Source of the DNA: Pedosphaera sp.
GTDB lineage: Bacteria > Verrucomicrobiota > Verrucomicrobiia > Limisphaerales > SIBH01
Direction of reading: 5' to 3'
Assembly (NCBI GenBank): GCA_031414955.1
Contig: JANOQV010000294.1
Coordinates: forward strand, 1-37,439
DNA: 37,439 bases
Position 1 is the stretch's first letter. Every line of letters begins with the position of its first letter. Under the pieces are notes generated by a model. The model was not told the DNA's origin. It saw only the letters and a list, made by a program, of their open reading frames with translations, and did not search any database. Below, piece by piece: positions 28,832 to 37,109 of the stretch. The position numbers and the translations under genes were made by a program.

Positions 28832-28868
28832 CCCCCTCACCCCGGCCCTCTCCCTCCGGGAGAGGGAG
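28832..28868. repeat. CCCCTCACCCCGGCCCTCTCCC..GGGAGAGGG-type palindromic repeat
   Basis: CCCTCTCCC-TCC-GGGAGAGGG hairpin with a CCCCTCACCCCGG leader. Confidence 0.75.
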
Positions 28869-28879
28869 AACCGCAGCCA

Positions 28880-29246
28880 GCCTCAGGCACCAGGGGCAGC
28901 GCGACCGACTCGTTGGCATCCAGCACCGCGTCATCCACCGGCGTGACGACCAGATCGGCGGAGGCCATTCCGGCGAAAAGGATCACGCTCCCGGACAAGG
29001 CCGCATAGTCATCATCGGGCGTCGTACGGCCGTGCCGCCATACTTCACCCAAACGGTGAGCGAACTGGCCGTGCTGCCGGTGCGGGTGACACGAATGTTG
29101 CCGGGATTCGGCGTCTGGCCCGGCCACGTCTCCGCCATGACGGAATCCGTGAGGGAGAGGCTGACGGTGGTTTGGGCTTGGGCCGAAGGAGCAGCCAGCC
29201 CAAGGAAGGTGGCGACAACGCAGGCCCACAAGGGTGATGTTTTCAT
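28880..29246 (-). pseudogene. frameshifted, truncated secreted Calx-beta domain protein
   Basis: Signal peptide (..SAQAQ) and VTRTGSTASSLTV..YGGTA in one frame. After a shift near 29015-29027 it continues DYAALSGSVILFAGMASADLVVTPVDDAVLDANESV, then runs into the repeat at 28868. Confidence 0.7.
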
Positions 29247-29268
29247 GAGGGTGTGTTTGGTTGACGGT

Positions 29269-29430
29269 TCAATGCACGAGGTAATCCGTCTTCACGCGGT
29301 AGAAAGTGTTGGTCACGTTGCTGGCGACTTCGCCCGGCACACCGAGGTCGGTGAGGGGATAAGTCTGAGCGAGGCCGCAGCCCGACAAAACAATGCTACC
29401 CGGCATGACGAATCGAATGAAGTGTTTCAT
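29269..29430 (-). pseudogene. 53-aa ORF, probable internally deleted remnant of a secreted protein
   Basis: Hand translation: MKHFIRFVMPGSIVLSGCGLAQTYPLTDLGVPGEVASNVTNTFYRVKTDYLVH*. Too short for the ORF track; ends 22 bp before the Calx-beta remnant start. Confidence 0.5.
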
Positions 29431-29911
29431 GCCAATGCCCCCCGCTGGACCGAGAACGGAATGGTCCGTTCCGGCTGTTCCATTCTCGGATCGCCCTGCG
29501 GGACCAACCGGCCGACGAGGGCGCCGCTCAAGTGCATAAAGCCGTGAATCAACGCCGGGGCGGTGTCACAAAAGGCAGCAAATGTTTGAGCACGATTCAT
29601 TTGGTTCCGAGCAAATGCTTACTACCACTTACCGTGCCAGTCCGCCATCCGGCGCTCCCCGTCCTGACACGTTCGCAGCGCCTGGCTCTCCGACAGGGCA
29701 AAATAGTTCCGCCAAGCAAAACACGGAACTTCCCGCCTGCCATCGGACCGGGCACAAACTGCGCTCCCCGCGCGAAAACTTGTTCACCGCCCGGTTATCA
29801 CGCGCACTTTCCAAGGTGAACAACTTGCCCGGCGCTCATTTTCACCCTGAAAACATTCATCCAAATACGCATCAAATTCTCCGCCCCGGTGAATAACTCG
29901 GTGCATATCAT

Positions 29912-29943
29912 TTGATTCACGCGCCACGCTTTTCTGCTAGGCT
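29912..29943 (+). promoter_or_regulatory. putative promoter of the large ncRNA
   Basis: Extended -10 TGcTAGGCT (29935-29943), with TTCACG (29916-21, 16 bp spacer) or TTGATT upstream. Predicts a start near 29950. Confidence 0.55.
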
Positions 29944-29949
29944 CTACCC

Positions 29950-30780
29950 AGTTCATTGAAAGAACGGCGGGGTGGTCGAAACGAAAGTTGGAATCAACCC
30001 GTCACGAGATAAACCCGGGCGACCGGGGAAAGATGAGGCCAGGCTGGTTGGCCCCGTCCCTCTGGAAACACAATCGAAAGATCGGATTCGGAGGCAGGAT
30101 TCACCGGTTCCACTGGCGGCGTTCGCGCGCTGTCCAGACACGCGAAGATGGAACCCATGCGACGAGAAGCGATGAGAAGCCGCTTCCAGTCGAGTCAAGT
30201 AACGCGGGGCGGTTTCGGCCTGCGCGCGAATCGCAGTGGCCCAAAGGGCCGACGGTTATTACTGCGCACCAGCACGGAACGAATGACTCTGGCGGTCTCC
30301 GGCAACGGGGGTCAGCTCAACGAAAGACGCCGAAAGGCGGGACAAAGGGAGCGTTCGAGACGGGGAGGACACAGCGTCTGGGCAGGACGCGTGAAAACCT
30401 TCCGCAACGTCGGCGATGTCGAAAAAGGCACCGCTGGCCTGTGAGCGAAACATAACCTGAGAGTGAAGAGGCGAGACCCGTGGCGCGGGGCGAACGGACG
30501 GCCAAAAGCCGTCGCTGACCCTGGGCTAAGCGGCCAAGACGCGGAATTAAATCGCAGACGTGTCTTGGCCTGGTTCGCAGGCCGGTGGCGCAACCATCAG
30601 TCGAAGCGAGCTGAAAAGCCTCACTCGATAATTCAGTGGCGCGAGCTACTGGACGGCCCTGCTACGAGGCCGAAAACTCCGCTTGCCGTGGAGAATGGCG
30701 TCGGGAAGCCGGCAGCCCTCGCGAGAGGAGCGCCCAATGTCGGCACGGGAAAGAGAGCATGGCGAACTCCCAGCCCCCAC
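29950..30780 (+). ncRNA. candidate giant structured non-coding RNA (GOLLD/ROOL-like size class, family unassigned)
   Basis: No credible ORF. Dense helices with GNRA loops and many G-U pairs that work only on the + strand, A-rich linkers, and flanking promoter and terminator. Confidence 0.8.
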
Positions 30781-30783
30781 TTT

Positions 30784-30825
30784 CGCGCTCGTTGGTCGCA
30801 AGACTGGCGGGCGCGTTTGTGTTTT
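30784..30825 (+). terminator. intrinsic terminator ending the ncRNA unit
   Basis: CGCGCTCGTTGGTC-GCAA-GACTGGCGGGCGCG (14 bp, 4 G-U pairs) followed by TTTGTGTTTT. Confidence 0.8.
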
Positions 30826-30996: not shown

Positions 30997-32316
30997 TTAT
31001 TTCTTCCCGATGCAGTGCAGCGTCTTGCCCGTGCGGATGAAAAGCTGGCCTTGCGAGATGGCGATGGAGGAACGCAGCGAGTTGTCCCCCTCGTCACCCA
31101 TCGGAGTGGAGTGGAGCAGCTTGAAGCCATCCGTCGCGGTCGAGGCCACGAAGACATTGCCCCGATGATCCATCACATAGATTTTTCCGTCCGCCACGGT
31201 GGGAGAAGATTCAAACACCGCGCGCCCGCCGCCGCTGGCCGCGAGATCGCCGGACCAGATTACTTTGCCACTGGCCGGTTCGAGGCACATCAAGCTGCGC
31301 TTGCCGCCGTTGAGCACATAGAACTTGCCCTGATAAAAGATCGGTGTGGGCACATCGCTGGTCACGTCACGTTCGGTGCTTTGCCAGGCGATGGAGGCAT
31401 CGGGCAGGATTCCATTTCCCCCGAGTTTCACCGCCGTGATCGGGGCATTCTTCGGACCGCAAGCCAGCGCCACGCCCGCGCCTACCACGGGCGACGGCAC
31501 GAGACGCCAGTGCCCGATCTTCTGCGGGTTCCATGTTCCCCAACGCCAGAGTTCCGCGCCCGAGTCAGGGTTGTGGCCGGTGATGCAGTCGCCGCCCAGC
31601 ACGAGGATTTCCTTGCGTCCATTGTGCGTGAAGGGAATCGGCGTGCTGAAGGCTTCGAGCGATTCCGCCACGGCGTCGGACGGGCGGATGTGCTTCCACA
31701 ACTCCTTACCTGTCTTGGGATCGAGCGCGAGGAGGTAGGAGTCGTTCTTGGCCCCGCCGCGTCCGTTCACCGCCACATTGCGCTGGAGCACCTGGATGTA
31801 GAGCTTGCCGTCGGCCAGCGTGGGGCTGGCGGAGTAAGTCCATTGATAAGCGAACGCGCCGTAGTCCTTCTGAATGTTGCGCGACCAGACTTGCTTGCCG
31901 CCCACCTCGAAGCACACCAGTTCGCCATTGCCGTAATAGAAATACACGAGCTGCCCGTCAGTCACGGGCGAGGGCGAGGAGAAGTTGCTCTTGTCGTCCT
32001 GCGCAATGCCCGGCCCCAAATCCTTCTGCCATTTCACCGCGCCAGTCTTGCGGTCGAGGCACAGCGCGACGCGCGACTTCTTTGGCGCGTCGATGGAGTT
32101 CACGAACACATTGTCGCCGAAGACGGCGGGTGTGGCCCCGCTTGGTCCAGGCAAGGGCACGGCCCAGGCCACGTTTTCGGTCTTGCTGAATTTCTCGGGC
32201 AGGTTGGTCTCGGGCGAGGAACCGTCGTAGTTAGGCCCGCGCCATTGCGGCCAGTTGGCGGCGGGAACGAGCGAGGCGCAGAGCATCCCAGCGAAACAAA
32301 GTGACAGTGATTTCAT
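30997..32316 (-). CDS. secreted PQQ-binding-like beta-propeller repeat protein
   Basis: Signal peptide, ANWPQWRGP, repeated LD.KTG...W blades, SSPTVADGKIY, QGQLFIRT. ATG 32316. Confidence 0.92.
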   Translation of the reverse strand: MKSLSLCFAGMLCASLVPAANWPQWRGPNYDGSSPETNLPEKFSKTENVAWAVPLPGPSGATPAVFGDNVFVNSIDAPKKSRVALCLDRKTGAVKWQKDLGPGIAQDDKSNFSSPSPVTDGQLVYFYYGNGELVCFEVGGKQVWSRNIQKDYGAFAYQWTYSASPTLADGKLYIQVLQRNVAVNGRGGAKNDSYLLALDPKTGKELWKHIRPSDAVAESLEAFSTPIPFTHNGRKEILVLGGDCITGHNPDSGAELWRWGTWNPQKIGHWRLVPSPVVGAGVALACGPKNAPITAVKLGGNGILPDASIAWQSTERDVTSDVPTPIFYQGKFYVLNGGKRSLMCLEPASGKVIWSGDLAASGGGRAVFESSPTVADGKIYVMDHRGNVFVASTATDGFKLLHSTPMGDEGDNSLRSSIAISQGQLFIRTGKTLHCIGKK

Positions 32317-32388
32317 AGTTTGAGTTCCGAGCTGTGGGCAACGGATAGCAACCAGACGGCAGCCGCACAAGGCACATTCAGCCCGGAC

Positions 32389-32497
32389 GGCGCGCGGGCT
32401 TTCCAGCCCGCAGCAACCTGGAACGACGGATGGCATCGGCCTGAAAGAACGCGTTCCGACCATCGGGCATGGCTGCGGACAGGAAAGTCCGCGCGCC
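32389..32497. repeat. REP-like inverted doublet
   Basis: GGCGCGCGGGCTTTCCAGCCCGCAGC (32389-414) and inverted GCTGCGGACAGGAAAGTCCGCGCGCC (32472-497). Confidence 0.75.
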
Positions 32498-32563
32498 GGA
32501 ACAAGCCACGAAGAACACAACCGCGCGCTTGCTCCCGCTGCGGATTCGCCGTCAGCTTGGGCC

Positions 32564-33295
32564 ATGAAACTTTACCCAGGCCTGGCTGCTCTCGTGGCGC
32601 TTTGTTTCATGGTCTCAACCCGCGCCGCCAGCCCGCCCACCATCGTGCTGGTCAGTGGCGAGGATGAATATCAGTCCACCGAAACGCTGCCGGCCTTCGC
32701 CAAGTCCATCGAGGCCGACCACCCGTTCAAGACCATTTATCTCCAACGCCAGTCCAAGCCCGACACCATCGCCGGCCTTGATGCGCTCAAACGCGCCGAC
32801 CTGCTCATCCTCTACGCGCGCCGCATGGTGCTCCCCGACGATCAGTTGAAGCAGTTTCAGAAATACTTCGAGAGCGGCAAGCCCGTCATCGGCCTGCGCA
32901 CCGCAAGCCACGCCTTCCAGACCTGGCTCGCCTTCGATCAGCAGGTGCTGGGTGGGAATTATCAGAACCACTACGGCAAGGATTTGCGGCCCAAGGTCAC
33001 GGTCGTCCCGGCCGCGAAATCACATCCCATTCTCCAGGGTCTGCCGGAGAACTTCACCTCGGCCGGCTCGCTCTATCGGAACACGCCGCTGCCAGCCAAC
33101 ACCACGCTCCTGCTCACCGGCACCATTCCCGACCACACCGAGCCGGTGGCCTGGACGCATGATTACAAGGGCGCGCGCGTGTTCTACACCTCCCTGGGCC
33201 ACGCGGATGATTTCAAGGACGCTGCCTTCCGGAGATTGTTGCTCAACGCGATCTATTGGGCCTTGAACAAGCCGACGGTGGAAGTGGTGAAGTAG
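32564..33295 (+). CDS. secreted ThuA-domain (class I GATase-like) protein
   Basis: Signal peptide, GEDEY, GKPVIGLRTASHAF, HPILQG, EPVAWT, RVFYTSLGH..DF..LLLNAIYWAL. Confidence 0.88.
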   Translation: MKLYPGLAALVALCFMVSTRAASPPTIVLVSGEDEYQSTETLPAFAKSIEADHPFKTIYLQRQSKPDTIAGLDALKRADLLILYARRMVLPDDQLKQFQKYFESGKPVIGLRTASHAFQTWLAFDQQVLGGNYQNHYGKDLRPKVTVVPAAKSHPILQGLPENFTSAGSLYRNTPLPANTTLLLTGTIPDHTEPVAWTHDYKGARVFYTSLGHADDFKDAAFRRLLLNAIYWALNKPTVEVVK

Positions 33296-33611
33296 CGGAC
33301 TATTGGTTTTAGGTCGGTGCCCAGACTGCCAGGTGGGAACCCGGCGTCAGAGGCCCGGCTCCGCTCCGCTTCGGGTGTGTCTATTTGGTGTCGCGAGCAT
33401 GGCCGATAACTTCCTCTTTCATTCACCCATTCGTCAGCGGGGAGTCGCGAAGTTGCCACGCGGGCGGGTTTGAATCCGCCCATGTTTCGATCACAGCAAT
33501 TCAATTCGCTCCTGCGGAGCGGGCTGGGATCGATTTCCCAAACCATCCGAGAGCAACAGTAGAAAGCGGAAACAAACCTCGCGTTTGCCCAAACACATCC
33601 ACAGCAACCTT

Positions 33612-36600
33612 ATGAAAATAAAATCATTTCTCATGGCCACCCTGCTTGCGGCAGGGATTGGTGGCGCGGCCCAGGCCCAGCCTCTGGTCAATCTCGGTCT
33701 GGTCGGCGTCGGCCGGCTCCCGGGCGATTCCTTCGACCAACTCGGCGCGGGCGTCGATACGCTGGGCGGCATCTTCTCGGGCCTGTGGCTCGACCCGGCC
33801 TCGATCGTGCAGAGCAACGGCACCTTTCACGCCACCGCCTTCGGCCTGCCGGATCGCGGCTTCGGCGACGGCTTGCAGGATTACCATCCCCGCATTCAAC
33901 GGCTGGCCCTGGCCATCACGCCTTACTCGGGCGCGGGTCCGGTGGCGCAGAACCAGATCGTCATGGCCAACACCGCCACTTACATGCTCACCGTCGGGAG
34001 CAACACCTTCACCGGCTTCATGCCCGATGACACGAACGTGCTCACGAATCCGCAGTCGCTGCCCGGCGGTTTGGGCGGCGGCAAGTGGAGCCTCGATCCC
34101 GAAGGCATCGCCTACACGCCGGCGGCGGGCGGGTCGTGGTACATCAGTGATGAGTATGGTCCGTTTATCTACCGCTTCGACAATTCGGGCGTGCTGCTCG
34201 GCACCCTGCCCCTGCCGGAAGCCTTTATTCCCAGGGTCGGCACCAATTATCCGCGCACCATCAATTACCTGGCGGGCGGACTGAGTTCAGCGCTCGATTC
34301 CGGCCGGCACAACAACCGCGGCATGGAGGGCCTGAGCATCACGCCGGACGGCAAGAAGCTCGTCGCCTGCCTCCAGTCGCCGCTGACCCAGGATGGCGAG
34401 AACCGCAACCCGAGCCGCAACATCCGCATCCTGGTTTATGATTTGGAGGCCGCCTCTCCCACTTATCATCAGCTCCTGGCCGAGTATGTTCATGTGCTTC
34501 CGCTCAACGCCGCCGAAGCCAACAACCGCCACACGCCGGTGAGCGAGATCGTCGCCTTGAGCGACAAGAAGTTCCTCATCCTCCAGCGCGACAGCCGTGG
34601 ACTCGGCGGTGATGCGGGCACGTTCCTCTACAAGCGCATCGTGGAAGTGGATGCGACCAGCGCGACGAGCATTCTCGGCACGGGCTACGATTTGGAAAAA
34701 GGTGCCCCGGGCGCCCTCGCGCTGCCGCGCGCCAGTCTGCCCAGCAACGTGGTGGCCGTGACCAGCCGCGACCTGGTGGACATACTGAATGCCAGCCAAC
34801 TCGCCAAGTTCGGCCTGAACCTCGCGCCCTCGAACCAGAACGCGAACACCATCTCCGAGAAATGGGAAGGCGTGGGCATCATCCCGCTGAACGATCCGCT
34901 GGCTCCGAACGATTACCTGTTGCTCGTGGGCAACGACAACGACTTCCGCGCCCCTGTGGTTTATCACAACGGCGTGGCCGTGGGCACCAACACGGTCGGT
35001 TCCGACAACATGCTGCTCGCCTTCCGCATCGGCGCGGACAGCATCCCGCCCGCCATCGTCTGCCCGGCCCCCGTCACCCTCAACGCCGGGACTAATTGCA
35101 CCGCCACGGTGGATCTGCGCTCGCGCGTCGTGATCACGGAGAACAGCGCCACGCCGGTCGCGGTCACGCAGTCGCCCAGTGCGACCACGCCCCTGGGCTT
35201 GGGCACGCACACGCTCACCTTCGTGGCCAAGGATGCCGCCGGGAACCAGAGCGCGCCTTGCACCACCACCGTCACAGTGGTGGATGTCACGCCGCCCATC
35301 GTCACCAGCGTGACGCCGAGCCAGAAGCAGCTCTGGCCGCCGAACAACAAGCTCATGCCCATCACCATCAGCGCCACCGCCACGGACAACTGCTCGGGCG
35401 CACTCGGCTGCGAGATTGTTTCCGTGACCAGCAACGAGAGCACGAACCGCCATGAGAATGGGGGCAGCCATGACCAGAACGCCGGCGACGGCCAGAGCAA
35501 GCCCTGGAATGGTGGCGACCAATCGACGGACTGGGAAATCACCGGCCCGCTCACCGTGAAGCTGCGCGCCGAGCGTTCCGGCCAAGGCTCAGGCCGCTTC
35601 TACTTCATCACCGTGCGTTGCACCGATGCGGCCGGGAATTCCTCGCTCGGCATCACCACCGTCTTCGTGCCGAAGAGCGCCAACGAGCTGGAAACGGGTT
35701 TCCGCACCAGCGTTCATCCCTACGCCGCGCCGGTCGGACCGGACTACAGCATCCTGCCCATCCTCAGCGTCGGCGACCGCGTGCCCCGCACCAGCAACGC
35801 CGATCAGCTTTTCCAGATGATTGGCATTCCCGACGGACTTGGCGCGCACCCCAATGTCGATGGCACGACCACGGTCTTCATGAACCAGGAACTGCCCAAC
35901 ACCGTCCCCTCCGAACCCGTCGTGGGCCAACCCCTCAGCCGCGGCGCTTTCGTCTCCAAGCTGCTCTTGGCGGCCGACGCCTCGGTCATCTCCGGCGACC
36001 TGGCTTACGAGAACGTCTATGTGGAGAACCTGTTCGTCGGCCCCGCCGCCACGATCAGCAACACCACCCCGGCCTTCTCGCGGTTCTGCTCGGGCGCACT
36101 GGCCGGCAAGGACGCGGGCTTTGATCGCCCGATCTACTTCTCGGGCGAGGAATCCGGTGGCGTGAACACCTTTGACGGACGCGGCGGTTCCGCCGTGGCC
36201 ATCTTCGACGACGGTGCCTGGACCCTGCCGCGCCTCGGCCACATGGCCTGGGAAAACGCCGTGCCGCGTCCCGCGCGCAACAGCAAGCAGACGGTCATCA
36301 TGTGCCTGGAAGATGGCGAAGTGGGCCAGTGCCAGCTCTACATGTATGTCGGCCGCAAGGATTCCTCCCGCTCGGCCGGCCCGCTGCGCCGCAACGGATT
36401 GGACAACGGATCGCTCTACGTCTTTGTCCCGTATTCCACGACCCAGACCAACGAGGCCACCCTCCCGAGCGGCGACCTGCGGGGCAAATGGGTGATCCTG
36501 CCCGGGGCCGAAAACATGACCGACGTGGAACTGGAAGCCGCTTCCGACGCGGTGGGAGCGTTCGCCTTCGACCGCATCGAGGACGGCTCGTTCCGCCCCG

Positions 36601-37109
36601 GCAAGCCCAACGAGTTCTACTTCGTCACCACCGGCGGTTCGGCGAGCAACGCGCTCGGCCGCCTCTACCAACTGGACCTCAATCCGCGCAACGTCCTCGG
36701 CTCGGCCAAGCTGACCTTGATGTATAACGCCGACCAGATCTTTGCCGCCGGCGGAGACGTGGCGTTCAGCCCGGACAACATCAGCGTGAGCGAGGACTAC
36801 ATCATGATCTGTGAAGACGGCACCGCGCAGAGCCGCGTCGCCATGGCCGCCCGGGGCCGCAAGGGCAACATCTGGCGCGTGAACCTCCGCACCGGCGCGA
36901 TCGAGAACGTGGCCACCCTGACCTCGGTGGGCCGCGACGGGATCGTCACCAACCCCGGTGTGTGGGAGTCCTCCGGCATCATCGACACCACGTCGATCTT
37001 CGGCGGCGACTCGTGGCTCTTCGACGTGCAGGCCCATTCGCCCACCCGGGCGCCGCGGCTGAACACCGTGGAGGACGGCCAACTGCTCTTGATGCTGCGT
37101 AATCGGTAA
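33612..37109 (+). CDS. secreted multidomain protein: phytase-like esterase domain + HYR/Ig-like domains + PhoX/DUF839-like domain
   Basis: Sec signal (AQA-Q). Phytase-like part: LPDRG, DPEGI, ISDEYGP, NRGMEGL, LQSPL, KWEG, NDNDF. HYR-like part: D..PP.I.CP..DAAGN. PhoX-like part: GIPDGLG, FSRFCSG, ENAV, IEDG, PDNI, CEDG, WESSGIID, VQAH. ATG 33612. Confidence 0.85.
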   Translation: MKIKSFLMATLLAAGIGGAAQAQPLVNLGLVGVGRLPGDSFDQLGAGVDTLGGIFSGLWLDPASIVQSNGTFHATAFGLPDRGFGDGLQDYHPRIQRLALAITPYSGAGPVAQNQIVMANTATYMLTVGSNTFTGFMPDDTNVLTNPQSLPGGLGGGKWSLDPEGIAYTPAAGGSWYISDEYGPFIYRFDNSGVLLGTLPLPEAFIPRVGTNYPRTINYLAGGLSSALDSGRHNNRGMEGLSITPDGKKLVACLQSPLTQDGENRNPSRNIRILVYDLEAASPTYHQLLAEYVHVLPLNAAEANNRHTPVSEIVALSDKKFLILQRDSRGLGGDAGTFLYKRIVEVDATSATSILGTGYDLEKGAPGALALPRASLPSNVVAVTSRDLVDILNASQLAKFGLNLAPSNQNANTISEKWEGVGIIPLNDPLAPNDYLLLVGNDNDFRAPVVYHNGVAVGTNTVGSDNMLLAFRIGADSIPPAIVCPAPVTLNAGTNCTATVDLRSRVVITENSATPVAVTQSPSATTPLGLGTHTLTFVAKDAAGNQSAPCTTTVTVVDVTPPIVTSVTPSQKQLWPPNNKLMPITISATATDNCSGALGCEIVSVTSNESTNRHENGGSHDQNAGDGQSKPWNGGDQSTDWEITGPLTVKLRAERSGQGSGRFYFITVRCTDAAGNSSLGITTVFVPKSANELETGFRTSVHPYAAPVGPDYSILPILSVGDRVPRTSNADQLFQMIGIPDGLGAHPNVDGTTTVFMNQELPNTVPSEPVVGQPLSRGAFVSKLLLAADASVISGDLAYENVYVENLFVGPAATISNTTPAFSRFCSGALAGKDAGFDRPIYFSGEESGGVNTFDGRGGSAVAIFDDGAWTLPRLGHMAWENAVPRPARNSKQTVIMCLEDGEVGQCQLYMYVGRKDSSRSAGPLRRNGLDNGSLYVFVPYSTTQTNEATLPSGDLRGKWVILPGAENMTDVELEAASDAVGAFAFDRIEDGSFRPGKPNEFYFVTTGGSASNALGRLYQLDLNPRNVLGSAKLTLMYNADQIFAAGGDVAFSPDNISVSEDYIMICEDGTAQSRVAMAARGRKGNIWRVNLRTGAIENVATLTSVGRDGIVTNPGVWESSGIIDTTSIFGGDSWLFDVQAHSPTRAPRLNTVEDGQLLLMLRNR

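Follow-up and report, generated by a model that had tools for sequence, protein, structure and literature searches.

Large RNAs described in other bacteria provide the frame in which we view the locus reported here. According to PMC12286853 and PMC12990946, ROOL and GOLLD are ornate RNAs of 600 to 850 nt with several covarying loop pairings and no known protein partner, all traits that they have in common with MISL, the family to which our locus belongs; they lie near tRNAs and in prophages and have been shown to form cages, whereas MISL is chromosomal and single copy and has no tRNA or phage context. PMC12286853 presents OLE, much like MISL, as a large, chromosomal, lineage-restricted, and highly conserved RNA, but OLE occurs in Bacillota together with known Oap proteins, whereas MISL occurs in Verrucomicrobiota and has neither a conserved neighbor nor a match to the OLE model. 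MISL ranks among the largest bacterial RNAs without an assigned function. It is reportedly one of 224 motifs described by Weinberg et al. in 2017. Within openly licensed PMC and bioRxiv text, with subscription papers outside the scope, the literature on MISL comes down to two figure legends of the Ribonanza preprint, and the portions available to us of the main text of the Weinberg paper (PMC5737381) and of PMC12990946 contain no mention of it.

The window, by which we mean the whole stretch of 37,439 nucleotides of a Pedosphaera sp. contig that was analyzed, contains one Rfam match above the gathering threshold, and this match is MISL (RF03079). Positions 30007 to 30770 of the + strand score 558.5 bits in cmscan against a gathering score of 274.6 (E value, 8e-170); the match is full length, covering positions 1 to 751 of the 751 in the model at about twice the gathering score, and the consensus helices of the family are retained in this copy, as seen in the cmscan alignment and from covariation. 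The Pedosphaera sp. genome holds a single copy. The locus is almost certainly a single-copy chromosomal MISL RNA gene and a full-length member of its family, with which it shares the match in sequence and structure, the range in Verrucomicrobiota, the organization as a stand-alone gene, and the lack of an assigned function. Its identity to 99 MISL homologs ranges from 53 to 85%, and no feature sets it apart, so that as a discovery it is an ordinary one, a typical representative of an RNA family already catalogued from bacteria of soil and water. What we add are the predicted ends of the gene, four pseudoknots, and the anatomy of the promoter, the pseudoknots being new relative to the printed Rfam structure line.

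An earlier note on this DNA had read the locus as a divergent GOLLD-like RNA or a new RNA class, and the size, the GNRA loops, and the knots of the molecule do recall GOLLD and ROOL. This reading was rejected and retains virtually no probability: against it stand the full-length MISL match and the GOLLD model, which like the models of ROOL, OLE, group I and II introns, RNase P, and tmRNA gives no match in the flagged stretch at E values up to 10 (cmscan). The note had itself allowed that a strong match to a known Rfam family would remove the novelty, and RF03079 does so. The genome has its own genes for RNase P RNA (contig C181) and tmRNA (contig C12) elsewhere, and 6S RNA gives a sub-threshold match only, away from the MISL locus.

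The gene unit exceeds the Rfam model, which omits 57 nt at the 5' end (a boxA hairpin and a variable hairpin) as well as the terminator. The predicted transcript runs from a putative start at about 29950 to 30825, about 875 nt, behind a predicted sigma70-type promoter at 29916 to 29943 on the + strand, with a -35-like TTCACG (29916 to 29921), an extended -10 TG (29935 to 29936), and TAGGCT (29938 to 29943), as derived from the positional consensus of 65 loci and the alignment. In these 65 loci, all of non-Opitutaceae type, a TTG-like -35 is conserved, as is the element TGnTAnnnT (29935 to 29943 in the window), which sits 8 to 13 bases upstream of the boxA word. The 33 Opitutaceae-type loci do not show this -10 element, and a consensus promoter scan of the window found nothing, the predicted promoter falling below the threshold of the scan. 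Downstream, the boxA GTTCATTGAAA (29951 to 29961) lies in a small GTTC/GAAC hairpin (29951 to 29965, + strand), which is followed by a sequence-variable 5' hairpin (29966 to 30003, + strand); neither is part of the Rfam model. Our homolog set began with 158 loci, of which 104 span the 5' word to 60 nt beyond the core (54 were too short) and 100 remained after removal of duplicates. The boxA is present in each of these 104 loci, the 5' word resembles GTTC(A/C/T)TTGA(A/T)AGAAC in all loci kept, and the variable hairpin forms an end-to-end stem in 99 of 99 loci folded (median z, -2.96), one of the 100 having been left unparsed. The core (30007 to 30770) is followed on the + strand by an intrinsic terminator at 30784 to 30825, again outside the model, which has a hairpin at 30784 to 30815 with a stem of 14 pairs, a GCAA loop, and covarying pairs, and then a U-rich tail; a terminator-like hairpin stands at the 3' end of 99 of the 100 homologs. 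With its own promoter consensus, its terminator, and variable neighbors, the locus has the makeup of a stand-alone unit, and its ends, pseudoknot map, and promoter anatomy together give the outline of a construct for cryo-EM and of mutants for genetic work.

The central claim of the earlier note, a large, stand-alone, structured RNA of the + strand with its own promoter and terminator, is upheld by the folding energy as well as by the promoter consensus and the terminator. The + strand folds better than shuffled controls (z -3.51, 0 of 20 shuffles as good; at a pair span of 150, z -4.46, 0 of 150 shuffles), and the - strand folds no better than its shuffles (z -0.06). Stems of 3 bp with a GNRA cap number 9 on the + strand and 2 on the - strand, compared with a shuffled mean of 2.4, and 0 of 1,000 shuffles reach 9. 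All 15 stems and stretches that the note had listed are present where it had placed them, with two reservations as to which of them form. The hairpin GCT-GAAA-AGC (30610 to 30619) probably does not, because its bases belong to two better-supported helices, 30572-30578:30606-30612, which shows 12 compensatory events, and 30468-30472:30618-30622, and its inner pair is kept in only 62% of homologs. The stems AAC/GTT, ATC/GAT, CGCC/GGCG, and CCTC/GAGG do exist in the window copy, but they cap variable arms and are paired in 25 to 80% of sequences, as read in the register of the alignment.

Covariation among homologs, which the note had proposed as a check, is observed. In an RNAalifold analysis of 31 loci, 109 of the 167 predicted pairs show two-sided change, and a G-test with a tree-simulated null on 100 sequences yields 14 pairs at E values up to 0.1. 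Twelve of these are canonical, and the other two reflect the exchange of C-G for G.A at the pair 30473:30617, linked to changes at 30615; this pair caps the junction-closing helix 30468-30472:30618-30622 of the + strand (G-test E below 0.1, about 4 joint changes) and is C-G in 57 sequences and G.A in 40. We also collected all 169 long-range helices that have at least 4 pairs and are retained by no fewer than 93% of sequences, and scored as a compensatory event each branch of the tree on which both sides had changed with pairing kept. Ten of these helices, namely, six Rfam helices and four pseudoknots, reach at least 5 events, compared with a maximum of 3 in 40 tree simulations, a null that undercounts weak background (53 helices with one event observed versus 4.8 expected). 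The 100-sequence alignment was made by sequence alone, and about two thirds of its members were found with a pattern that fixes 30455 to 30481.

All four pseudoknots lie on the + strand. PK1 pairs a hairpin loop at 30044-30048 with 30268-30272 (95 to 100% paired, 5 compensatory events on 4 pairs), and PK2 pairs 30254-30259 with 30452-30457 (99 to 100% paired, 7 events on 4 pairs), reading GGUUAU/AUAACC in the window copy and GGUUGC/GCAACC in the consensus. PK3 joins 30439-30444 to a hairpin loop at 30552-30557 (94 to 99% paired, 8 events on 5 pairs, 12 single pair-breaking changes), and PK4 joins a hairpin loop at 30660-30664 to 30696-30700 (98 to 99% paired, 5 events on 2 pairs, 0 breaking changes). 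Apart from one closing G-U, the strands of PK1 to PK4 are left unpaired in the printed Rfam structure line, and the 100-sequence alignment supports all four; cmscan does not print pseudoknots, and the Rfam seed or the supplement of PMC5737381 may already annotate them. With these several covarying long-range loop pairings, MISL possesses a trait of ROOL/GOLLD-like nanocage RNAs. Covariation looks alike for intra- and intermolecular pairs, and we noticed, in an unsystematic look, no covarying palindromic loop of the kind that might mark symmetric bridges.

Further pairings of the + strand are best regarded as candidates. A kissing loop, 30176-30180:30212-30216, is 98 to 100% paired and has moderate support, with 3 events, a count equaled by one spurious-looking helix. 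The candidate PK0 would pair boxA bases 29957-29960 with 30100-30103 (97 to 100% paired; 2 events, not significant), one of its pairs varying between AU (61 sequences), UA (26), UG (8), and CG (1), and the candidate PK5, 30731-30734:30761-30764, is 99% paired with little variation, which amounts to conservation; it shows fewer events than PK0, again not significant, and is not among the covarying helices. Two pairings were discarded, CCCGU:ACGGG, which had no covariation and was also tested in the wrong register, and 30456-30460:30701-30705, which had no covariation. The 3' third is the most conserved part of the RNA, with GACCCGU invariant in the 31 model-found loci, and conservation reaches 97% or more at 223 of 882 positions, many of which lie outside helices, although the search pattern accounts for part of this.

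The resemblance of the 5' end to a boxA, which had been remarked on before, goes deeper than likeness: the word is genuinely the boxA of the lineage's rRNA leaders. The 16S gene of the window genome is absent from its assembly, and leaders were taken instead from 24 related genomes; all 24 hold the word G(C/T)TC(A/T/C)TTGA(A/G)A, 114 to 197 bases ahead of the 27F site, and 3 of them hold the identical GTTCATTGAAA. Genes of the NusB family and for Rho are present in the genome. PMC13753749 describes how boxA loads NusB:S10 and blocks Rho on rRNA operons and places boxA also ahead of suhB and CRISPR operons. Given the word in the rRNA leaders, the NusB and Rho genes, and this function of boxA, it is reasonable to infer that MISL would be protected by Nus antitermination. 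The setting is that of the boxA of rRNA operons and CRISPR leaders, in that a word common to MISL and to the 16S leaders of the lineage precedes a long untranslated RNA in a genome with NusB and Rho. In MISL, boxA occupies about +1 to +12, within a 4-bp hairpin that is 97 to 100% paired across homologs, whereas the boxA of the 16S leaders stands well ahead of the 27F site and has no such hairpin. The orientation differs as well, in that many MISL genes are on the lagging strand and the single 16S gene examined for this is not. Elsewhere in the genome, a boxA-type word, GTTCTTTGAAA, follows a promoter-like stretch just ahead of a cobalamin riboswitch (G000:C39:20711, - strand, locus L063), where Nus protection of the riboswitch leader is possible. 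A search for distant homologs with the boxA 15-mer matched 64 of 401 genomes, and 0 of the 29 other loci examined held MISL (nhmmer).

The earlier note overlooked, along with the pseudoknots, a group of DnaA-type boxes upstream of the promoter. Box 1, TTGTTCACC, with 2 mismatches to TTATNCACA (29780 to 29788, + strand), recurs as a forward box at about -171 to -185 from boxA in many homologs, and box 2 (29815 to 29823, - strand), which faces it at 35 bp, recurs at -136 or -150. Box 3, TTATTCACC (29888 to 29896, - strand), has a counterpart at -61 to -65 in 77 of 98 loci, and box 4 (29900 to 29908, - strand), in tandem with box 3 and just upstream of the -35, has one at -50 to -53 in 80 of 98. 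The boxes of the window have 1 or 2 mismatches each. In 28 loci, the 400 bp upstream contain a mean of 5.6 such boxes (at most 2 mismatches), versus 1.6 and 2.0 in control windows, and 94 of 98 loci have at least three boxes within 220 bp; the same words are found upstream of dnaA in all 5 genomes examined and only rarely ahead of 16S genes. By loose counting, 25 of 129,812 genome windows have as many boxes as the MISL locus, and a narrower motif, derived from these loci and hence circular, singles out the MISL locus alone. In a closed genome, the region upstream of MISL is the top box cluster in 400 kb, above the region upstream of dnaA itself. Conserved putative DnaA boxes thus adjoin the MISL promoter, from which we infer that DnaA may control it; our search for DnaA-controlled noncoding RNAs in the literature brought up nothing bearing on the MISL family. 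An obligatory head-on orientation of MISL to the replication fork, suggested by five genomes, was not upheld in 31, of which 23 lean to the lagging strand, 5 are clearly leading, and 3, including the window genome, are ambiguous; the lagging-leaning set takes in all 15 Opitutaceae-type genomes, which are kin, 7 located by the boxA 15-mer alone.

MISL occurs in 30 of 41 genomes of the order, the window genome included (26 above the cut-off), and in 15 of the 21 that are of high quality; since the other 6 of these 21 have no match, it is not universally required. One genome with 8% contamination holds three partial MISL pieces. Under strict filters the RNA is present in 9 of 151 genomes across the phylum, it also occurs in Opitutaceae and in one genome of another class, and 0 of 14 control genomes carry it. 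A core-pattern search returned at least 120 genome contigs, and among the 80 titles listed 74 are Verrucomicrobiota. Six records titled Dongiaceae, Saccharimonadales, or Bifidobacteriaceae (L133, L140, L163, L164, L169, and L171) carry a typical MISL. In four of the six, the flanking proteins are 60 to 89% identical to those of the window genome, and these four titles look wrong because the flanking genes are Verrucomicrobiota-like; L169 gave no flanking-protein match. Three divergent copies, L028, L037, and L038, are 53 to 55% identical to the window copy, and an enlarged copy, L113, has about 230 extra bases in its 5' half.

No tRNA was found in the window, and the absence of a tRNA, phage gene, or partner ORF near the RNA, as the earlier note had described it, agrees with what we find: housekeeping neighbors and no conserved partner. 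Downstream lies a convergent gene for a PQQ/BamB-like beta-propeller protein (30997 to 32565, - strand; Pfam PF13360), which is neither a conserved neighbor nor part of the unit; upstream are short ORFs without a family, and the ORFs that overlap the RNA have no Pfam match. A synteny search, with heuristic ORF picking that included some wrong-strand frames, found no partner gene common to all lineages. Neighbors differ by lineage and include what are presumably, as named from the printed sequences, a divergent lipoprotein-like gene (25 loci), cysK (19 loci), and a typA-like GTPase (14 loci), and neither of the last two is beside MISL in the window.

Metatranscriptomes hint that the family is expressed. 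Four runs from four studies each hold between 6,972 and 16,990 MISL-like contig pieces, almost all between 29936 and 30806. These contigs represent diverse relatives, come from 4 of 24 listed runs picked for holding the sequence, and carry no information on strand, ends, or level, so that they are not proof of expression for the window locus; missing RNA cover on the flanks is likewise no evidence, because those runs may lack the window organism. MISL pieces also occur on five IMG/VR contigs (L230 to L234), where they are joined to RNA-virus sequence. Two of these contigs have levivirus maturation or replicase genes, and in another two an identical virus end runs into MISL pieces that differ from each other and point in opposite directions. 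We read all five as probable chimeras of metatranscriptome assembly that contaminate the viral collection, and rejected phage carriage of MISL.

How might such a gene work? With a confidence that falls somewhat short of even, we propose that MISL is a stable RNA of about 875 nt, DnaA-regulated and Nus-protected, with a compact fold and a trans-acting scaffold role, which it probably fills by self-assembly in the manner of ROOL and GOLLD. The sigma70-type promoter would start the transcript at about 29950, and DnaA on the four upstream boxes would set promoter output and tie synthesis to growth or the replication cycle. NusB-S10 would load at the 5' boxA and, as it does on rRNA operons, protect the untranslated transcript against Rho up to the terminator at 30784 to 30825. 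The RNA would then adopt a fold of about 25 helices, held together by four or more pseudoknots, accumulate as a stable species, and serve in trans as a structural scaffold, most likely by forming homo-oligomers like those of ROOL, GOLLD, and OLE, with some loop pairings made between copies. Trans action is suggested by MISL neighbors that differ between lineages, and self-assembly is favored because some covarying loop pairings of ROOL and GOLLD proved to be intermolecular bridges, as reported in PMC12286853. Against this scaffold model, a boxA held in a hairpin, and perhaps in a pseudoknot, would hinder NusB, and the intrinsic terminator must still work under antitermination. A bolder and rather improbable version makes MISL, rather than a series of separate hairpins, a compact and multiply knotted RNA machine, cage or ribozyme, produced like rRNA under DnaA control and wired to the replication cycle, whose boxA would initially serve for Nus loading and later be trapped in the fold, acting as a cotranscriptional switch. 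If MISL forms a cage or is cell cycle controlled, RNA-only assemblies would extend from phage-linked RNAs to a core chromosomal gene.

The same observations can be assembled differently. MISL could work within an OLE-like or Y-RNA-like ribonucleoprotein whose dedicated protein is encoded at an unlinked site and would bind the conserved single strands. The many positions at least 97% conserved outside helices would fit, allowing for the share set by the search pattern, as would a vertical, single-copy, chromosomal inheritance closer to that of OLE than to that of GOLLD; no neighbor is common across lineages, however, and we consider this reading unlikely, if a serious contender. The strong conservation of the 3' third, with its invariant GACCCGU, the several pseudoknots, and the C-G to G.A switch at the junction might instead point to a ribozyme, or to an RNA that binds a ligand, with its catalytic core toward the 3' end (30450 to 30770). 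Such a role is improbable in our view, as models of ribozymes, introns, and RNase P all fail to match at E values up to 10, RNase P RNA and tmRNA are encoded elsewhere in the genome, and no substrate is evident.

Two further readings place the emphasis on the DNA or on the surrounding genes rather than on a trans-acting scaffold. We give little credence to the locus itself being the main actor, a datA- or DARS-like site that would titrate or recycle DnaA and be modulated by MISL transcription or by the RNA: facing and tandem boxes at fixed spacing, a cluster that ranks first in 400 kb above that of dnaA, and a distance from the origin would suit it, but box positions fixed relative to the promoter (-51 and -63) are what regulation leads one to expect, and 750 nt of conserved fold would be left unexplained. 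The DnaA-type boxes also raise the question of a replication origin, ORFs of 155 and 170 codons that overlap MISL that of a protein gene, and the five viral contigs that of a phage-borne element, to which a cis-regulatory leader may be added. This whole group is very improbable and largely refuted already. A role as oriC was rejected because the GC skew does not flip at MISL in 5 of 5 genomes (G100, G002, G229, G220, and G277, the skew being weak in G002); in G100, which is closed, the switch in skew and KOPS polarity falls near 2.0 to 2.1 Mb and near the ends of the record, away from MISL at 2.45 Mb and dnaA at 2.29 Mb. A leader is at odds with a downstream gene that is convergent and a unit that is closed by a terminator, a protein gene with many frame-breaking indels in the alignment and overlapping ORFs without a Pfam match, and a phage-borne element with the junctions to RNA-virus sequence that mark the viral matches as assembly chimeras.

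Some minor observations concern the surroundings of MISL rather than the RNA itself. In G100 (contig C1, closed), dnaA at 2,292,810 lies about 0.25 Mb from the skew-defined terminus, away from the origin. In the window, 28837 to 29430 (- strand) holds two short divergent ORFs with signal-peptide-like starts, one of 53 amino acids at 29269 to 29430 and one of 87 amino acids at 28983 to 29246; the latter has a faint Ig-like match (E value, 0.04), seems to be continued in another frame, and is perhaps part of a broken surface-protein gene. A cluster of seven tRNA genes elsewhere in the genome (G000:C221:370-2479), several of which duplicate isoacceptors found at other sites, may be a mobile tRNA array or contamination. 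A secreted-looking protein of 1174 amino acids, in which phytase-like and HYR domains precede a long unassigned C-terminal region, is encoded farther downstream in the window, at 33585 to 37109 (+ strand).
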